From the NCBI GenBank assembly GCA_013360395.1, contig JABWBQ010000003.1, forward strand, positions 18,011-82,010: a DNA stretch of 64,000 nucleotides. The letters are read 5' to 3'. The stretch is from Flavobacteriales bacterium. GTDB lineage: Bacteria; Bacteroidota; Bacteroidia; Flavobacteriales_F; PHOS-HE28. The first letter of the stretch is position 1. Each line of letters opens with the position of its first letter. The translations under genes were made by a program, and so were the position numbers. Of the stretch, positions 38,429 to 43,023 are shown in pieces. The notes under the pieces are model-generated. The model did not search any database. It was not told the DNA's origin and saw nothing but the letters and a program-made list of their open reading frames with translations.

Positions 38429-39883
38429 ATGGATCTCACTTCGATCAAATCCGTCCTCGACGAAACCCCCACCAACACCACCGTCACTGTGGCCGGCTGG
38501 GTGCGCACCTTCCGCAACGACCGCTTCATCGCCCTCAACGACGGCAGCACCATCCACAACCTGCAGTGCGTGATCGACCAGCAGCAGGTGGACGCCGCCA
38601 CGCGTGCCCGCTTCACCACCAGCGCCTCGGTGCGCTGCACCGGCACCATCGTGGAAAGCCAGGGCAGCGGCCAGCGCGTGGAGATGCAGGTGAAGGAAGT
38701 GGAGGTGCTCGGCGACAGCGACCCGAACGCCTATCCCATCCAGCCGAAGAAGCACAGCCTGGAGTTCCTCCGCGAGAACGCCCACCTGCGCTTCCGCACC
38801 AACACCTACAGCGCCATCTTCCGCATCCGCCACCAGGTGAGCTTCGGCATCCACGAGTATTTCAGCGGCCAGGGCTACAACTACTTCCACAGCCCCATCA
38901 TCACTGCCAGCGATGCGGAGGGCGCGGGCGAGATGTTCCGCGTGAGCACCCTCGACCCCAAGAACCCGCCGCTGAACGACGACGGCAGCGTGAACTGGAA
39001 GGAGGATTTCTTCGGCGCCGAGAGCCGCCTCACCGTGAGCGGCCAGTTGCAGGCCGAGCTCGCGGCCCTCGCGCTGGGCAAGGTGTACACCTTCGGGCCC
39101 ACCTTCCGCGCGGAGAACAGCAACACCGCGCGCCACCTGGCCGAGTTCTGGATGATCGAGCCCGAGGCCGCCTTCCTGGACCTGCACGGCAACATGGACC
39201 TGGCCGAGGGCCTGTGCAAGCACCTCATCGCCCGTGTGCTGCAGCACAGCGCCGACGACCTGGAGTTCCTGGACAAGCGCATGGCCGAGGAGGAGAAGCA
39301 GAAGCCGCAGCAGCAGCGCAGCGAAATGGGCCTGATCGAACGCCTGAAGTTCGTGCTGGAACATCCCTTCGAGCGGATCACCTACACGGACGCGATCGAC
39401 ATCCTGCTGCGCAGCAAGCCCTACCAGAAAAAGCAGTTCCAGTATCCGGTGGAATGGGGCGTGGACCTGCAGAGCGAGCACGAGCGCTACCTGGTGGAAA
39501 AGCACTTCAAGAAGCCGGTGATCGTCACGGGCTACCCCGCGCAGGTGAAGGCCTTCTACATGCGCATGAACGGCCCCGGTGACTTCGGCTACACGGACAA
39601 GGGCGCCACCGTGGCCGCCATGGACGTGCTGTTCCCTGGTATCGGCGAGATCATCGGCGGCAGCCAGCGCGAGGAGCGCCTCGATGTGCTGGAGGCGCGC
39701 ATGGATGCCATGGGCGTGCCCAAGGACCAGATGTGGTGGTTCCTGGATACGCGCCGCTTCGGCACCGTGCCCCACGCGGGCTTCGGCCTGGGCCTGGAAC
39801 GCTTCGTGCTCTTCGTCACCGGCATGGGCAACATCCGCGACGTGATCCCCTTCCCCAGGACCCCGAAGAGCGCGGAGTTCTGA
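38429..39883 (+). CDS. asnS: asparagine--tRNA ligase
   Basis: Full-length class IIb pattern: [20 protein letters not shown] (OB fold), [43 protein letters not shown] (motif 2), [28 protein letters not shown] (motif 3). Confidence 0.95.
   Translation: [484 protein letters not shown]
39798..39883 (+). repeat. asnS 3' terminal segment, copy 1 of 3 (functional copy)
   Basis: The core cttcgtcaccggcatgggcaacatccgcgacgtgatccccttccccaggacc (39811-39862) recurs in diverged form at 41165-41208 and 42969-43020. Confidence 0.7.
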
Positions 39884-39963
39884 GCCTGCCACCGGTCGCG
39901 GTTCCTCGGTCGCGAAGGCTGGTTTTTGCCGAATATGGAAATCAATTCCATATTTGTCCTATT

Positions 39964-41121
39964 ATGATCCCCCGGCAGATCCTCCCGGTGCTCAAGCGCA
40001 GCCTGCGCGACATCCCGGTGCTCACCCTCACAGGCCCTCGGCAGAGCGGTAAGACCACCTTGGTGAAGACCCTGGCGAAAGGGGCGCGCTACGTGAACCT
40101 GGAGTTCCCCGATGAGCGTGAACGAGCCATCTCCGATCCACGGGGCTTCCTCGCGGACCTGGGTGGCAAAGCGATCATCGATGAGGTGCAGCACGTCCCG
40201 CAGCTCATCTCCTACCTGCAGGGCCTGGTGGATGAACGGCCGGGGAACGGCCAGTACGTGCTCACCGGCTCGCACAACCTGCATCTCATGGAGCGCGTGG
40301 CCCAAAGCCTGGCGGGGCGGACCCTCATCCACGAGCTGATGCCCTTCAGTGCCGCCGAGCTCGCGCGTGCCAATGCGCTTCCCTCCCGGGTGAACGACTG
40401 GCTCTTGAAAGGCGGTTATCCGCGGCTGTACGACAAGTCGGAGAACCCCTCGACCTGGCTGCGTTCCTACCTGCGCACATACGTGGAGCGGGACATGCGG
40501 CAGATCATCACCGTGCGCGACCTGAACACCTTCAACCGCTTCCTGGCCTTGTGCGCCGGGCGCATCGGGCAATTGCTGAACTACACCGCGCTGGCCACGG
40601 AGACCGGCGTGGATGTGAAGACCGCCCAACATTGGATCAGCGCGCTGGAGGCGAGCTACATCCTGTTCCGTCTGCCGCCGCACCACCGCAATTTCAACAA
40701 GCGCGTGGTGCGCACGCCGAAACTCTACTTCCATGATACCGGCGTCGCATGCGCACTGCTCGGCATCCGCACGGCCGGCACGCTCACCACGCACTTCACC
40801 CGCGGCGCTCTGTTCGAGAACATGGTGGTCACCGAGGTGCTCAAGGACCGCCTCAACCGGGGCCTGCCGCCGGAGCTCTACTTCTGGCGGGACAAGACCG
40901 GCCATGAGGTGGACCTGCTGATCGACGATCCCGAAGAGCCGTGTGTGATCGAGGTGAAGGGATCGCGAACGGTGCATAGCTCCATGCTGGACGGACTCTC
41001 CTACCATCGCGCCTTGAACAAGCACGGTGCGCGCTACCTGTTGCTGCATGAGGGCTCGGCTTCCTGGGACCGCGAGGGCATCGAGGTGCGGAACTGGACC
41101 TCGCTATTCCAGAACAGATGA
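39964..41121 (+). CDS. AAA-superfamily ATPase (COG1373-like, AAA_14 + DUF4143)
   Basis: LTLTGPRQSGKTTLVKTL (Walker A), AIIDEVQHVPQL (Walker B), then ...YLRTYVERDMRQI...FNRFLALCAGRIGQLLNYTALA.., typical of this family. Confidence 0.85.
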   Translation: MIPRQILPVLKRSLRDIPVLTLTGPRQSGKTTLVKTLAKGARYVNLEFPDERERAISDPRGFLADLGGKAIIDEVQHVPQLISYLQGLVDERPGNGQYVLTGSHNLHLMERVAQSLAGRTLIHELMPFSAAELARANALPSRVNDWLLKGGYPRLYDKSENPSTWLRSYLRTYVERDMRQIITVRDLNTFNRFLALCAGRIGQLLNYTALATETGVDVKTAQHWISALEASYILFRLPPHHRNFNKRVVRTPKLYFHDTGVACALLGIRTAGTLTTHFTRGALFENMVVTEVLKDRLNRGLPPELYFWRDKTGHEVDLLIDDPEEPCVIEVKGSRTVHSSMLDGLSYHRALNKHGARYLLLHEGSASWDREGIEVRNWTSLFQNR

Positions 41122-41162
41122 TGGCGCCCTATAGTCCGTTCCTGAGGTGTACTGGTGCTCGT

Positions 41163-41213
41163 CGCTTCGTCACCGGCATGGTCACCATCCGCGATGTGAT
41201 CCTCGGGGAATGA
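41163..41213 (+). repeat. asnS 3' end fragment, copy 2 (orphan)
   Basis: Reads RFVTGMVTIRDVILGE*, compared with AsnS [22 protein letters not shown]. The first 17 nt are identical to copy 1 (cttcgtcaccggcatgg), and about 38 of the first 41 nt match. Confidence 0.65.
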
Positions 41214-41238
41214 TATGCGTATGATCCGATAGCCACCC

Positions 41239-42054: not shown

Positions 42055-42111
42055 ACGGCGGCTGTCGTTCCCGTTCTATTTCCGCGGTGCAGCGTGGGGG
42101 TCCTTTGCCCC

Positions 42112-42633
42112 ATGGAACGCACCATCCTCCTGCTCGCCGCGCTGTCCACGGCGCTGCTGTCCGGCCTGTTCTACGCCTGGTCCTGTTCGGTGATGCCGGG
42201 CTTGGCCAGGCTTTCGGACCAACACTACCTGCACGCCATGCAGGCCATGAACCGGGCCATTCTCAACCCCATCTTCTTCCTGTCCTTCTTCGGCTCCTCC
42301 ATCCTGCTCCCGCTCTGTGCCTGGCAACAGGTGCGCATGATCGGCGCCTCGGAAGCCGCCTTGGCGATCCTCGCCGCAGTGGTGCTCTGGGTGGGCATGA
42401 TGGGTGTAACGGTGTTCGTCAACGTGCCGATGAACAACCTGTTGGACGCCGCCCACCTCGACGCTGCAAGCCCGGGTGAATTGAGGAAACTGCGTGCGCT
42501 GCTCCAGGGATCGTGGACCCGGTGGAACAACGTGCGGACGGTCGCGACCGCGCTCGCACTGCTGCTGTTGCTGCTGCACGCCCTGCGGTCGCGGGGGATC
42601 GATGCGCCATTCAACATGCACCTCCATCCATGA
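42112..42633 (+). CDS. DUF1772 (anthrone-oxygenase-like) membrane protein
   Basis: Four hydrophobic helices and family-typical stretches: LLSGLFYAWSCSVMPGL, MQAMNRAILNPIFF, VFVNVPMNN, WTRWNNVRTVA. Confidence 0.7.
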   Translation: MERTILLLAALSTALLSGLFYAWSCSVMPGLARLSDQHYLHAMQAMNRAILNPIFFLSFFGSSILLPLCAWQQVRMIGASEAALAILAAVVLWVGMMGVTVFVNVPMNNLLDAAHLDAASPGELRKLRALLQGSWTRWNNVRTVATALALLLLLLHALRSRGIDAPFNMHLHP

Positions 42634-42938
42634 AGATGCTCGTGATGGCCCTCGGGACGATCACGCTCTTCCTCATGGCCCATGGCCCGGGCCCGCAGCC
42701 GCATTCAGGAGCCACCGGCCGGGACCTGTTCGAGCTCAACTGCGCCCGCTGCCACGGATCGGATGGCGCGAAAGGGCGTTGGGGTGCGCGGAACCTTCGG
42801 AAGAGCCGCTTGAGCGATGGTTCGATCGCACAGCAGATCCGGCAGGGACGCGGCATCATGCCCGCCTTCGGGAACAAGCTCAAGCCCGAGGAGGTCGCCG
42901 CGATCTTGCGGTACGTGAAGTCACTTCGCGACCCATAG
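42630..42938 (+). CDS. class I c-type cytochrome (102 aa)
   Basis: Signal peptide MKMLVMALGTITLFLMA, haem site CARCH, distal IMPAF Met. ATGA overlap with the DUF1772 gene. Confidence 0.8.
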   Translation: MKMLVMALGTITLFLMAHGPGPQPHSGATGRDLFELNCARCHGSDGAKGRWGARNLRKSRLSDGSIAQQIRQGRGIMPAFGNKLKPEEVAAILRYVKSLRDP

Positions 42939-42963
42939 CAACTTCGGCGGAGGCCAGCGCGAG

Positions 42964-43023
42964 GAGCGCTTCGTCACCGGCAGGGGCAACATCCGTGACG
43001 TGATCCCCTTTCCGAGGACCGAC
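42964..43023 (+). repeat. asnS 3' end fragment, copy 3 (orphan)
   Basis: Reads [20 protein letters not shown], compared with AsnS [23 protein letters not shown]. The core at 42969-43020 differs from copy 1 by a few substitutions and one 1-nt indel. Confidence 0.7.

Follow-up and report, generated by a model that had tools for sequence, protein, structure and literature searches.

The 3' end of asnS as a repeated insertion site of small accessory islets in Flavobacteriales, with a possible origin in serial att-type integration

Introduction

Phage 21 and e14 bring a replacement 3' end to the icd gene of E. coli, which stays functional, while the displaced native end lies distally with synonymous differences. 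Both are complete (pro)phages that encode an integrase of their own and insert a single time. Integron arrays and CALINs are compact rows of cassettes that mostly share one orientation, have one or a few genes each and carry no recombinase; a stop codon abuts the next site, and the newest cassette stands beside the anchor. In Streptococcus, CIMEs and the tandem accretion of ICE/IME-type elements are described at the 3' end of a gene (PMC5704250). At ssrA of Dehalococcoides, an integration module is present in 16 of 31 islands, and those without one are proposed to be cis-mobilisable or fixed; these island arrays drive strain-level diversity (PMC3146451).

Here we describe the 3' end of asnS, in a 64-kb stretch of DNA from an uncultured member of the Flavobacteriales (the whole stretch analysed, referred to as the window), as a repeated insertion site of small accessory packets, mostly of the defence type. 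Such hotspots are already known as a kind; no description of asnS as one was found in the literature searched. Like CIMEs, the asnS islets are bounded by attL/attR repeats of the target 3' end, are without integration and transfer genes, and are stacked around an internal att site with the target gene intact. They differ in that a cognate integrase-bearing ICE/IME is known at the same streptococcal site, whereas none was found in 57 asnS loci; they are also far smaller (0.2-9 kb, often a single gene), with longer repeats (about 72-86 nt, to the stop codon). The ssrA islands likewise form tandem arrays 3' of a single-copy essential gene, each bounded by a direct repeat of the 3' end, but their target is an RNA gene, their repeat is 20 bp and half have a serine-integrase module, whereas asnS is protein-coding, with a longer repeat and no module seen. 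Instead of a complete prophage as in icd, asnS has arrays of cargo-only islets. Unlike those of integrons and CALINs, its repeats are copies of coding sequence rather than attC hairpins, and no IntI gene lies beside the array.

Organization of the asnS locus

The locus consists of the following features, in window coordinates.

38429-39883, plus strand: asnS, an intact asparaginyl-tRNA synthetase gene of 484 aa (Pfam tRNA_anti-codon and tRNA-synt_2)
39798-39883, plus strand: proximal, attL-like repeat, the functional last 86 nt of asnS and reference copy of repeat family D1
39884-41158, plus strand: islet B, a single-gene cassette with a terminator-like hairpin (39906-39928), a palindrome (39932-39953) and an AAA_14/DUF4143 ATPase gene (39964-41121; Pfam, PADLOC)
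39932-39953, no strand: the palindrome AATATGGAAATCAATTCCATAT, 10 nt 5' of the ATPase start codon
41159-41202, plus strand: relic copy 2, an internal att-like site between islets B and C (35/38, score 69)
41203-42943, plus strand: islet C, with genes for an AraC-family regulator (41239-42054), a DUF1772/Anthrone_oxy protein (42112-42633) and a cytochrome c (42630-42938; Pfam)
42944-43020, plus strand: relic copy 3, composite and probably the oldest, in which 42944-42969 corresponds to asnS 39654-39679 and 42966-43020 to asnS 39808-39862
43021-45121, minus strand: segment inserted or rearranged, no asnS repeat beside it, with a T9SS beta-lactamase-family gene (43082-44554) and a DUF302 gene (44592-45059; Pfam)
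45122-45203, minus strand: native downstream DNA, a remnant of the 3' end of an adenylate-cyclase gene (83-86% identical to L001:10301-10383 and L015:2087-2166)

The tRNA-synt_2 match in asnS reaches residue 478 (Pfam), and the protein is 82-98% identical to about 57 Flavobacteriales MAG orthologues. The initial annotation read three copies of the asnS 3' end here, and these are real. With blastn-short within the window, 39811-39848 matches 41165-41202 (35/38 identical, E 2e-8), and 39811-39862 matches 42969-43020 (48/52, E 2e-14); in ungapped register, copy 3 is identical to the asnS 3' end at 50 of 55 positions over 42966-43020. Copy 2 ends at 41202, not at 41208 as first given. When the last 90 nt of asnS were aligned to 3,408 other 73-nt window segments on both strands, the scores averaged 19.9 with a maximum of 39, against 69 for copy 2 and 90 for copy 3. 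No additional copy of the 3' end was found elsewhere in the 64 kb by blastn-short, so the repeat is not dispersed. Both copies stand well clear of the in-window null. Neither a dyad nor a hairpin is apparent in the repeat (fold z-scores -0.1 to -1.5). The identical layout occurs in independent assemblies, so the array is not an assembly artefact.

Copy 2 is truncated on its right side, where it diverges from asnS after GTGATCC, and is orthologous to the full-length relic L015:2005-2077. The in-frame readings quoted earlier for both copies are correct; because the 31-aa ORF around copy 2 (41118-41213) has many non-synonymous differences from its L015 homologue, they carry no functional weight. 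In copy 3, the piece at 42944-42969 matches asnS 39654-39679 at 24 of 26 positions, encodes GGSQREER and is joined in frame to the -86/-75 region (counted from the end of the stop codon), so the copy derives from a longer piece of asnS that has lost about 125 nt internally. The left part of the copy looks as if it came from an element. On the right it is cut 21 nt short of the stop codon end and fused to the 3' flank of the beta-lactamase gene, and the same junction is present in its ortholog, L042:20321-20374. The 2.1-kb repeat-free insertion parts it from the native DNA, and a search for a fourth relic at 45052-45121 gave no significant match against the in-window null. Copy 3 is probably the oldest relic but not an intact ancestral 3' end, and the earlier reading of it as the ancestral end is not supported.

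Comparison with related loci

The downstream region of asnS was compared in relatives, and the comparison supports an insertion hotspot. In L001, an empty site, asnS directly adjoins native downstream DNA, the adenylate-cyclase gene. In L015, a filled site, asnS is followed first by islet B in decayed form and then by a full repeat of 73 nt that runs to TGA; the same cyclase DNA directly follows this distal relic. Islet B is thus an indel relative to L001, with a decayed form in L015 and L342. The segment 43021-45121 is missing between asnS and the downstream block in both L001 and L015, where DUF302 follows ArsC. Relic 3 together with its junction to the beta-lactamase segment is shared with L042 at 95.6% identity, and there a 9-kb type I R-M islet stands in place of B and C. 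The copies delimit discrete insertions, as had been proposed. Of 57 distinct related asnS loci, 14 have at least one same-strand relic; among the 34 with 3 kb or more of downstream sequence, 11 do. Tandem relics also occur in L007 and L092.

The left edges of the relics cluster 72-86 nt ahead of the stop codon end. Seven relics, representing about four independent islet lineages, begin at -71 to -79 (window copies 2 and 3, L015b, L042b, L139b, L113b and, by nhmmer, L007b), and three begin at -83 to -86 (L059b, L092c, L133b); these two groups account for 10 of the 16 relics whose boundaries were tabulated. The proximal repeat includes the tandem CGCTTCGTG/CTCTTCGTC, where most left edges of relics fall. 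Relics c2, c3 and L015b have CGCTTCGTCACC at the left edge where asnS has CTCTTCGTCACC, and this common edge suggests that the element-side sequences may be related. Intact right edges lie at the stop codon or no more than 3 nt from it (L015b, L004b, L007b, L139b, L103b, L133b). Such a pattern is expected if the element brings a replacement 3' end and the crossover lies at the left edge of that end. Longer relics also exist, reaching -249 and -322 (L092b and L090 keep 249-322 nt of asnS).

Proximal and distal copies differ at synonymous sites; in L007, the functional asnS end has unusual codons and the relic resembles the clade consensus. A 19-38-nt insertion inside the relic is common to L007b, L133b and L107, and the cargo before it is FG-GAP, an ATPase and ThiF/two-component, respectively. 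Additional cargo at the hotspot includes type I R-M, Dcm (twice), a PIN toxin, a DUF4160/DUF2442 pair, T9SS surface proteins and PDC-S01 ATPases of two distant types, a set typical of integration hotspots. Several cargo stop codons lie 0-7 nt from the relic. Contigs with identical proteins show no structural polymorphism, and thus no sign of current excision.

Cargo and recombinase search

The gene content of the two islets is as first annotated (Pfam). The cargo is a candidate defence ATPase in B and a regulator with two redox proteins in C. The ATPase matches the PADLOC PDC-S01 models (candidate defence) at E 2.9e-102, and terminator- and promoter-like sites were found in islet B. In islet C, the AraC regulator has DUF6597 and HTH_18 domains (Pfam), and the cytochrome c start overlaps the DUF1772 gene stop via ATGA. 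The three-gene module is also found distant from asnS in L171, L172 and L188 (47-61% aa identity). No asnS relic was found at AraC-homologue loci, the sole nhmmer match being the full-length asnS end in L215. GC and codon usage, for which a check had been proposed, give no indication that the islets are foreign.

Neither a tyrosine or serine recombinase nor a transposase turned up among the islets (0.2-9 kb, about 16 genomes) or, apart from an IS3-type HTH fragment (14629-15069), in the Pfam-scanned ORFs of the window; the search included a crude motif scan. Two att patterns searched in viral contigs gave no match. The initial annotation held that the islands had lost their recombinases, which is unsupported because no such gene was found in any islet; the majority would never have had space for one besides their cargo. 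A trans-acting recombinase or some other mechanism is no less likely than loss. Overall, the earlier interpretation is partly supported.

The 5' end of asnS

Two further features lie upstream.

32579-32758, plus strand: displaced asnS promoter region and 5' relic; the ORF 32682-32758 encodes 29 aa
32750-38469, plus strand: insertion of 5.7 kb at the 5' end of asnS in comparison with L041 (mag.6)

The core of the 5' relic, 32716-32749, matches 38476-38509 (32/34, E 2e-8), and 32579-32758 has a counterpart in L041 (90% identity) that leads directly into asnS. The insertion holds a TPR histidine kinase, a LuxR response regulator and a Peptidase_S74 tail-fibre-like protein, and also supplies a replacement asnS promoter and 5' end. 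This displaced relic beside an insertion supports the earlier view that asnS has received insertions at both termini.

Origin of the array

We prefer serial att-type integration with accretion into CIME-like arrays, to which we give a probability of about 0.5. The last 72-86 nt of asnS would be the attachment site, where small circular elements bearing their own copy of the asnS 3' stretch would recombine one after another. The gene would stay intact because its end beyond the crossover is now element-derived; the cargo would land directly after the stop codon, and the previous 3' end would be displaced distally as a non-functional relic. Repeated rounds would give asnS-B-relic2-C-relic3, with B probably the newest and relic 3 the oldest. 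The relics would decay, and older cargo would be deleted between repeats or replaced through flanking homology, which would explain the same old relic behind different cargo in different species. As the islets are without a recombinase, the integration enzyme would be encoded elsewhere, or the array would be a fixed fossil. We infer that the joining reaction was site-specific (att x att) recombination. Against serial integration stand the absence of recombinase finds in the islets and in the Pfam-scanned ORFs of the window and of an integrase-bearing parent in the 57 loci, the tight spacing of cargo stops and relics, which leaves no room for recombinase arm sites, and the relics reaching -249 and -322. 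Additionally, the mirror-image 5' duplication would need a second site specificity, contigs with identical proteins are structurally uniform, and the repeat is without a dyad or hairpin.

The lack of recombinase genes and the same type of duplication at both gene ends also fit homology-driven capture, possible but unlikely, in which circles or linear DNA of relatives, bearing a short piece of the asnS 3' end, would enter by a RecA-dependent Campbell-type single crossover without a dedicated recombinase. The crossover would fall in the asnS stretch encoding class II synthetase motif 3, extremely conserved in DNA, and cargo lying between asnS and an older relic would be swapped by homologous recombination. 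A 38-nt degenerate core pattern matches asnS in several phyla, the recurrence of one relic behind different cargo agrees with allelic replacement via the flanks, and the host-like islet composition would make relatives the donors. With 249-322 nt at 90-95% identity, the long relics suit RecA well, but 40-70 nt at about 90% is a poor substrate for it. Capture also leaves the origin of the first duplication without explanation, and does not account for the 15-nt left-edge cluster or the right edges at the stop codon.

Illegitimate recombination or break repair, by non-homologous or microhomology joining of foreign DNA into or beside the asnS end, with only products that duplicate the essential gene end surviving, seems quite improbable. 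It would suit the repeat-free insertion of the beta-lactamase/DUF302 segment (43021-45121), the internal deletions of relic 3 at the short repeats GAGCGC/GAACGC and TTCGT/TTCGT, the tight cargo-relic junctions and the heterogeneous lengths of some relics. It fits poorly with recurrence in 14 of 57 loci with clustered edges, the clean empty/filled pair with an exact end at the stop codon, and tandem arrays in which every relic is co-oriented.

Cassette-encoded mobility, for which we see still less chance, would make the PDC-S01 ATPase-nuclease and its upstream palindrome a self-mobilising single-gene element that duplicates 20-90 nt of target DNA and may act in trans on neighbouring cassettes. 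Direct repeats bracket 10 of 68 homologue loci (E <= 1e-5), against 0 of 218 windows displaced by 2.6-3.9 kb and 2 of 68 for inverted repeats. Units 95-97% identical, from -62/-70 of the ATG to about +66 past the stop, have unrelated flanks in 8 genomes, and those of L271 and L263, which belong to different phyla, share 97.4% identity from -106 to +71. In L257 the repeat comprises the final 26 nt of an alpha/beta-hydrolase gene, counting its stop codon, and two ATPases only 33% identical both lie at the asnS 3' end. The family palindrome is conserved at the left end of the unit, although it may merely be an operator, and DUF4143 is classed as a PD-(D/E)XK nuclease fold (PMC3424549). However, ATPase-free islets (C, R-M, Dcm, PIN, FG-GAP) show the same repeat structure at asnS; the repeat lengths are very variable, some of the repeats are hairpins or terminators, perhaps attC- or REP-like sites belonging to cassette arrays, and no biochemical precedent is known.

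Remains of a decayed asnS paralogue or a generic dispersed repeat are hardly credible: relic 3 does combine two distinct stretches of asnS, and long ones survive in L092b and L090, but only terminal fragments occur, co-oriented, always 3' of an intact asnS and ending at the stop codon, the L015 relic abuts native downstream DNA, and the window has no further copies.

PDC-S01 ATPase units

PADLOC lists PDC-S01 as a candidate defence system of an AAA ATPase with PD-(D/E)XK (PMC12988326); the likeness to islet B concerns the cargo only, with a shared AAA_14 and DUF4143 architecture. Repeat bracketing or a palindrome of PDC-S01 found no mention in the literature searched. The exact AATATGGAAATCAATTCCATAT motif also lies upstream of ATPases only 31-50% identical, on metagenome contigs of GC 0.30-0.43, and long palindromes precede 44 of 97 members of the ATPase family. 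In many phyla, PDC-S01 ATPase genes behave as separate units of about 1.3 kb that direct repeats often flank.

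The asnS gene and its downstream array

In the source genome, a high-GC (63%) Flavobacteriales MAG, asnS is followed by two small cargo-bearing segments: islet B (39884-41158, the ATPase cassette) and islet C (41203-42943, AraC/DUF1772/cytochrome c). Each is closed by a displaced, degenerate copy of the asnS 3' end, hereafter a relic. The features of the region are listed below.

Features of asnS and its downstream array (window positions)
38429-39883, + strand: asnS, encoding a full-length class II synthetase (484 aa) that Pfam matches as far as residue 478
39964-41121, + strand: AAA_14/DUF4143 ATPase (Pfam)
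41159-41202, + strand: copy 2, degenerate asnS end (sequence match to asnS)
41239-42054, + strand: AraC-family regulator (Pfam)
42112-42633, + strand: DUF1772/Anthrone_oxy protein (Pfam)
42630-42938, + strand: cytochrome c (Pfam)
42944-43020, + strand: copy 3, second copy of the asnS end (sequence match to asnS)
43082-44554, - strand: T9SS beta-lactamase-family gene (Pfam)
44592-45059, - strand: DUF302 (Pfam)

The target gene is reconstituted and intact, its AsnRS C-terminus being the same as in relatives, and both islets have asnS-end copies at their borders and lack integration and transfer genes. A blastn-short comparison of asnS with the whole window matched 39811-39862 to 42969-43020 (48/52, E 2e-14) and 39811-39848 to 41165-41202 (35/38, E 2e-8). 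The copies that the initial annotation had described are real: copy 2 scores 69 and copy 3 scores 90, whereas the 3,408 segments of the window used as an empirical null reach at most 39 (mean 19.9). The same asnS query found no further 3'-end copy in the 64 kb, which speaks against the dispersed repeat that had been named as a refutation. The initial annotation needs correcting on two points: copy 2 stops at 41202, and copy 3 is composite and cut at -21 (relic positions are counted from the end of the asnS stop codon). Its segment 42944-42969 corresponds to asnS 39654-39679 (24/26) and continues without a frame change into the -86/-75 region, and the right end lies 21 nt short of the stop-codon end; copy 3 is therefore derived from a longer asnS fragment minus about 125 nt.

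The layout is identical in independent assemblies. Every contig examined that encodes an identical AsnRS, ATPase, AraC or beta-lactamase has the same integrated layout, and among contigs with identical proteins no strain-level presence/absence or excision polymorphism was visible. The test of GC and codon usage that had been proposed did not mark the islets as foreign: islet GC3 is 0.73-0.86 against 0.83-0.89 in neighbouring genes, GC is 0.62-0.68 throughout, and islet composition resembles that of the host. A scan for promoter and terminator consensus sequences gave counts no higher than the shuffled expectation. Gene callers annotate a 31-aa ORF (41118-41213) that overlaps the ATPase stop codon (ATGA) and includes copy 2; it is probably not functional, because its 40-aa counterpart at the related locus L015 carries many non-synonymous differences.

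Empty sites, shared relics and their frequency in relatives

For comparison, asnS loci were fetched from related genomes. In L001 (96% aa), a convergent adenylate-cyclase gene directly follows asnS, representing the empty site. In L015 (98% aa), asnS is followed by the islet-B left end, a truncated ATPase, a full 73-nt asnS-end copy reaching TGA, and then cyclase DNA, so that the two loci form a clean empty/filled pair with the same downstream DNA. The window retains just an 82-nt remnant of the cyclase end (45122-45203). For islet C the evidence for an empty site is indirect, and comes from L042 (95% aa), where other cargo, a 9-kb type I restriction-modification islet (HsdR, HsdS, HsdM), separates asnS from an orthologue of relic copy 3 that has the same truncation, the same beta-lactamase junction and 95.6% identity over 1 kb. 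Comparing the region downstream of asnS in relatives, as the initial annotation had advised, bears out the islets as insertions at a hotspot. Outside asnS loci, the closest AraC-DUF1772-cytochrome c modules (47-61% aa) occur without relics, and islet C was not recognized beside asnS elsewhere.

Beyond relic 3, in the stretch 43021-45203, the beta-lactamase and DUF302 genes lie ahead of the remnant of the L001/L015 cyclase gene. In L001 and L015, DUF302 follows ArsC; therefore, the beta-lactamase/DUF302 segment moved or inserted, with no asnS repeat. A fourth, fully ancestral relic at 45052-45121, beside native downstream DNA, was considered and rejected because its local score of 16 is below the null mean.

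A profile of asnS 3' ends was run over all loci, counting distinct loci with at least 80% aa identity. Relics were present in 14 of the 57 distinct related asnS loci, and in 11 of the 34 for which 3 kb or more is available downstream; a search for the core beside other asnS genes had been proposed. Further cases are L113 and L160/L090, the latter with a relic 8.6 kb off, and tandem relics occur in L007 and L092. The cargo is diverse, and includes Dcm methyltransferases (L004 and L064, frameshifted in L064), a PIN toxin module (L103), a DUF4160/DUF2442 pair (L007), FG-GAP or T9SS surface proteins (L007, L139, L059), a TPR protein (L124), a second ATPase 33% identical to that of the window (L133), and unknowns.

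Repeat anatomy and cargo turnover

Seven relics start at -71 to -79 (copies 2 and 3 of the window, those of L015, L042, L139 and L113, and, as placed by nhmmer, that of L007), and represent about four independent islet lineages. Three more have a left edge at -83 to -86 (L059, the second relic of L092, and L133), two are long (-249 and -322), and four are shorter and decayed. Intact right ends lie at the stop codon or within 3 nt of it in L015, L004, L007, L139, L103 and L133. The duplications measure 38-86 nt or longer, with variable length, and synonymous differences separate the proximal from the distal copies. Exactly this edge pattern is expected of an element that supplies a replacement 3' end and crosses over where the shared block begins on the left.

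An odd insertion of 19-38 nt, of the form ATGCC..TTCGGCAG..GCAGGCAGGCC, is common to the relics of L007 (8453-8474), L133 (6061-6098) and L107 (about 3150-3170). The L107 relic is on a different contig from the asnS of the same MAG. Ahead of these relics lie FG-GAP (L007), ATPase (L133) and ThiF/two-component (L107) cargo; this is a second case, after copy 3 and L042, of one relic behind different cargo, and cargo is therefore exchanged while fossil relics stay in place. Probably either a fresh element integrates at the functional end and the DNA between repeats is then deleted, or the cargo is replaced by way of its flanks.

The 5' side of asnS

The initial annotation had described asnS as a hotspot at both termini, and this is supported by comparison with the related locus L041. 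The segment 32579-32749, comprising the asnS promoter and first 23 codons, is 90% identical to L041, and is parted from the rest of asnS by a 5.7-kb insertion (32750-38469), with an overlap of 40 nt. The insertion contains a TPR kinase, a LuxR regulator, an S74 tail-fibre-like protein and a different asnS 5' end; no recombinase was found in it, and it mirrors the 3' arrays. The 5' relic itself (32682-32758), 5.7 kb upstream of asnS, has an ATG of its own and 26 codons resembling those of asnS, with a stop three codons further on, and its core matches asnS at 32/34 positions (blastn-short in the window).

The search for a recombinase or parent element

The islands had been thought to have lost their recombinases, and this part of the initial annotation found no support. 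Pfam revealed no tyrosine or serine recombinase, and no transposase, in the islet ORFs of the window and about 16 relatives. In the window's Pfam-scanned ORFs there was no recombinase or transposase except an IS3-type HTH fragment 24 kb away. That fragment, a 146-aa ORF (14629-15069, HTH_Tnp_1) with no neighbouring catalytic ORF, is the window's only transposase-like signal. A crude, supplementary regex scan for tyrosine and serine recombinase motifs over all fetched loci gave a single match, which lies ahead of asnS in a locus from Spirosoma. The proposed search for a cognate integrase returned no integrase-bearing ICE/IME in the 57 related asnS loci (representative genomes, up to 10 kb of flank), and two degenerate att patterns had 0 matches in viral contigs as a phage or provirus attP. 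By inspection, no motifs are shared at the left or right ends of unrelated islets.

Several observations stand against a simple decayed integrative element. Most islets measure 0.2-2.7 kb, are filled by cargo and are too small to hold a recombinase; in several, the cargo stop codon lies 0-7 nt from the relic. The repeat lacks hairpin or dyad character, no parent element was found in the genomes or viral contigs searched, and neither excision polymorphism nor foreign composition was seen. With recombinases absent, islets small, junctions tight, no parent and host-like composition, loss of recombinases is therefore not the most economical explanation. A trans-acting enzyme, RecA-dependent Campbell-type capture via the very conserved motif-3 DNA, or long-ago fixation may each take its place.

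The PDC-S01 ATPase of islet B

The islet B ATPase matches the PADLOC PDC-S01 model PDLC04790 (E 2.9e-102) and has the architecture AAA_14 + DUF4143; DUF4143 is classed as PD-(D/E)XK (PMC3424549). By this model match and the ATPase/PD-(D/E)XK architecture, we assign it as a PDC-S01 candidate defence gene, PDC-S01 being a candidate defence system described as the fourth most common (PMC12988326). Sequence search gave no homologue of solved structure. Among 80 homologue loci (L251-L330; 38-52% aa, many phyla), 68 were testable for bracketing, and significant direct repeats bracket the ATPase gene in 10 of these, compared with 0/218 control windows shifted by 2.6-3.9 kb and 2/68 in inverted orientation. 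In one case (L257), the repeat is the last 26 nt of an alpha/beta-hydrolase gene, stop codon included (4908-4933/6183-6208). Eight genomes share a 95-97% identical unit of about 1.3 kb, from -62/-70 of the ATG to about +66 past the stop, in unrelated flanks; two homologue loci from different phyla (L271 and L263) are 97.4% identical over -106 to +71. Bracketing and near-identical units in unrelated flanks suggest a single-gene mobile cassette, although some of the ATPase-flanking repeats are hairpins or terminators and may come from cassette arrays. Further bracketed or unit examples are L277:4931-6239 and L271:1407-2771.

A 22-nt palindrome, AATATGGAA(A/T)TCAATTCCATAT, precedes the window ATPase at 39932-39953. 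Exact copies of it occur 7-35 nt upstream of ATPases just 31-50% identical, on metagenome contigs of GC 0.30-0.43 (L331-L355), and its outer arms covary. Across the family, a palindrome whose stem measures 10-29 bp stands immediately before the start codon in 44 of 97 members, and in two of the metagenome loci (L331, L350) the flanking repeat stops right at the palindrome, which may be an operator.

Likeness to known systems and mechanism

The array fits the structure of site-specific islands in its repeats, intact target, empty site and tandem order, and fails on the cognate integrase. Like islands at gene 3' ends, the asnS islets have co-oriented direct repeats of the target 3' end (attL/attR). 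As in the accretion of CIMEs at gene 3' ends (PMC5704250), they keep att-like ends without integration or transfer genes; unlike CIMEs, which an ICE/IME sharing their site can mobilise in cis, they had no integrase-bearing partner of this sort among the 57 related asnS loci and the viral contigs searched. The tandem ssrA islands of Dehalococcoides, of which 16/31 have an integration module and the module-less ones were proposed as cis-mobilisable or fixed (PMC3146451), are among the closest concepts. Arrays of 3'-end islets are thus already known as a kind, and asnS as the site is the new addition; the literature searched contained no description of asnS as an attachment site.

Other architectures were rejected. 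An integron array or CALIN does not agree with the DNA folding of the asnS end and relics, which lack an attC fold (z = -1.48, +0.78, -0.14, -0.22, -0.29), nor with the surroundings, where no IntI or attI lies beside the array and the genes on its upstream side encode an S74 protein, a response regulator and a kinase. A transposon with target-site duplication is countered by the missing transposase, the variable duplications and the want of terminal sequences common to the islets. For a Xer module (IMEX/pdif), the repeat is plain coding sequence with no fold signal. Sites of the dif type have two 11-nt arms in dyad symmetry around a 6-nt spacer; no internal inverted repeat of the asnS repeat was among the 25 longest of 91 pairs.

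We favour, at a probability of about 0.5, serial integration of the att type with accretion, in which the elements supply the replacement ends and the enzyme acts in trans or is gone, and after which relics decay and cargo turns over. Phage 21 and e14 at icd are the textbook example of elements that bring a replacement 3' end, and the recurring left edges and the right edges at the stop codon agree with such a process; the missing enzyme and parent weigh on it. Homology-driven capture or exchange with no dedicated recombinase accommodates that absence and the conserved repeat, and we regard it as possible but rather doubtful. Less likely still are illegitimate events, of which selection would have kept those that left asnS intact: they would suit the variable duplication lengths, and have to meet left edges repeated in about four lineages. 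Slightly behind them comes mobility encoded by the cassettes themselves, with the bracketed ATPase units on its side and the diversity of other cargo at asnS to account for. In its fullest form, which we consider improbable, the asnS end would anchor a recombinase-less, integron-like cassette system, mechanistically different and driven by the PDC-S01 cassette and its terminal palindrome. The cassette would then be a single-gene mobile element that goes in directly behind stop codons or tRNA ends, with 20-90 nt of target duplicated, and it may move neighbouring cassettes in trans; if true, the fourth most common prokaryotic 'defence system' would be at least partly a selfish mobile gene. Paralogue decay or chance likeness is hardly credible.

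Significance

The asnS gene is a protein-coding addition to chromosomal docking sites, in an uncultured wastewater/freshwater Flavobacteriales clade in which about a quarter of the sampled related species have asnS relics and both gene ends are used. The locus shows how a defence-rich variable region can be built from tiny cargo-only islets, with att relics outlasting the cargo across species, and the steady absence of a recombinase makes it well suited to testing whether cassettes are captured in trans or through homology. The PDC-S01 side lead may outweigh the asnS finding; if confirmed, discrete units that are almost the same in different phyla, often bracketed and headed by a deeply conserved palindrome would change the reading of a very abundant 'defence candidate'.

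Further observations

Upstream of asnS, 17179-38350 holds a paralogous module family, in which four tail-fibre-like genes of the Peptidase_S74 (endosialidase chaperone) type, one of them containing collagen repeats, are intermixed with LuxR response regulators and three TPR/HisKA_3 kinases. Two MAGs have two asnS contigs each with differing 5' ends (L105 and L143 in KLAP54, L015 and L041 in mag.6), which could be strain mixtures or repeat-broken assemblies. In several related MAGs, asnS is enlarged by about 450-500 nt in the part that corresponds to residues ~181 to ~195 of the window's AsnRS (L062:3374-3858, L080:5698-6146, L087:6336-6835, L133:3439-3911); at least in L133 this insertion is in frame, within one ORF of 720 aa. 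In Saprospiraceae/Lewinellaceae, a short asnS-3'-like stretch containing a CCCCGAG...CTCGGGG hairpin directly follows asnS (L025:11674-11753, L029:11459-11517, L028:11442-11514, L049:11718-11761), and may be an unrelated small duplication or MITE-like insertion.
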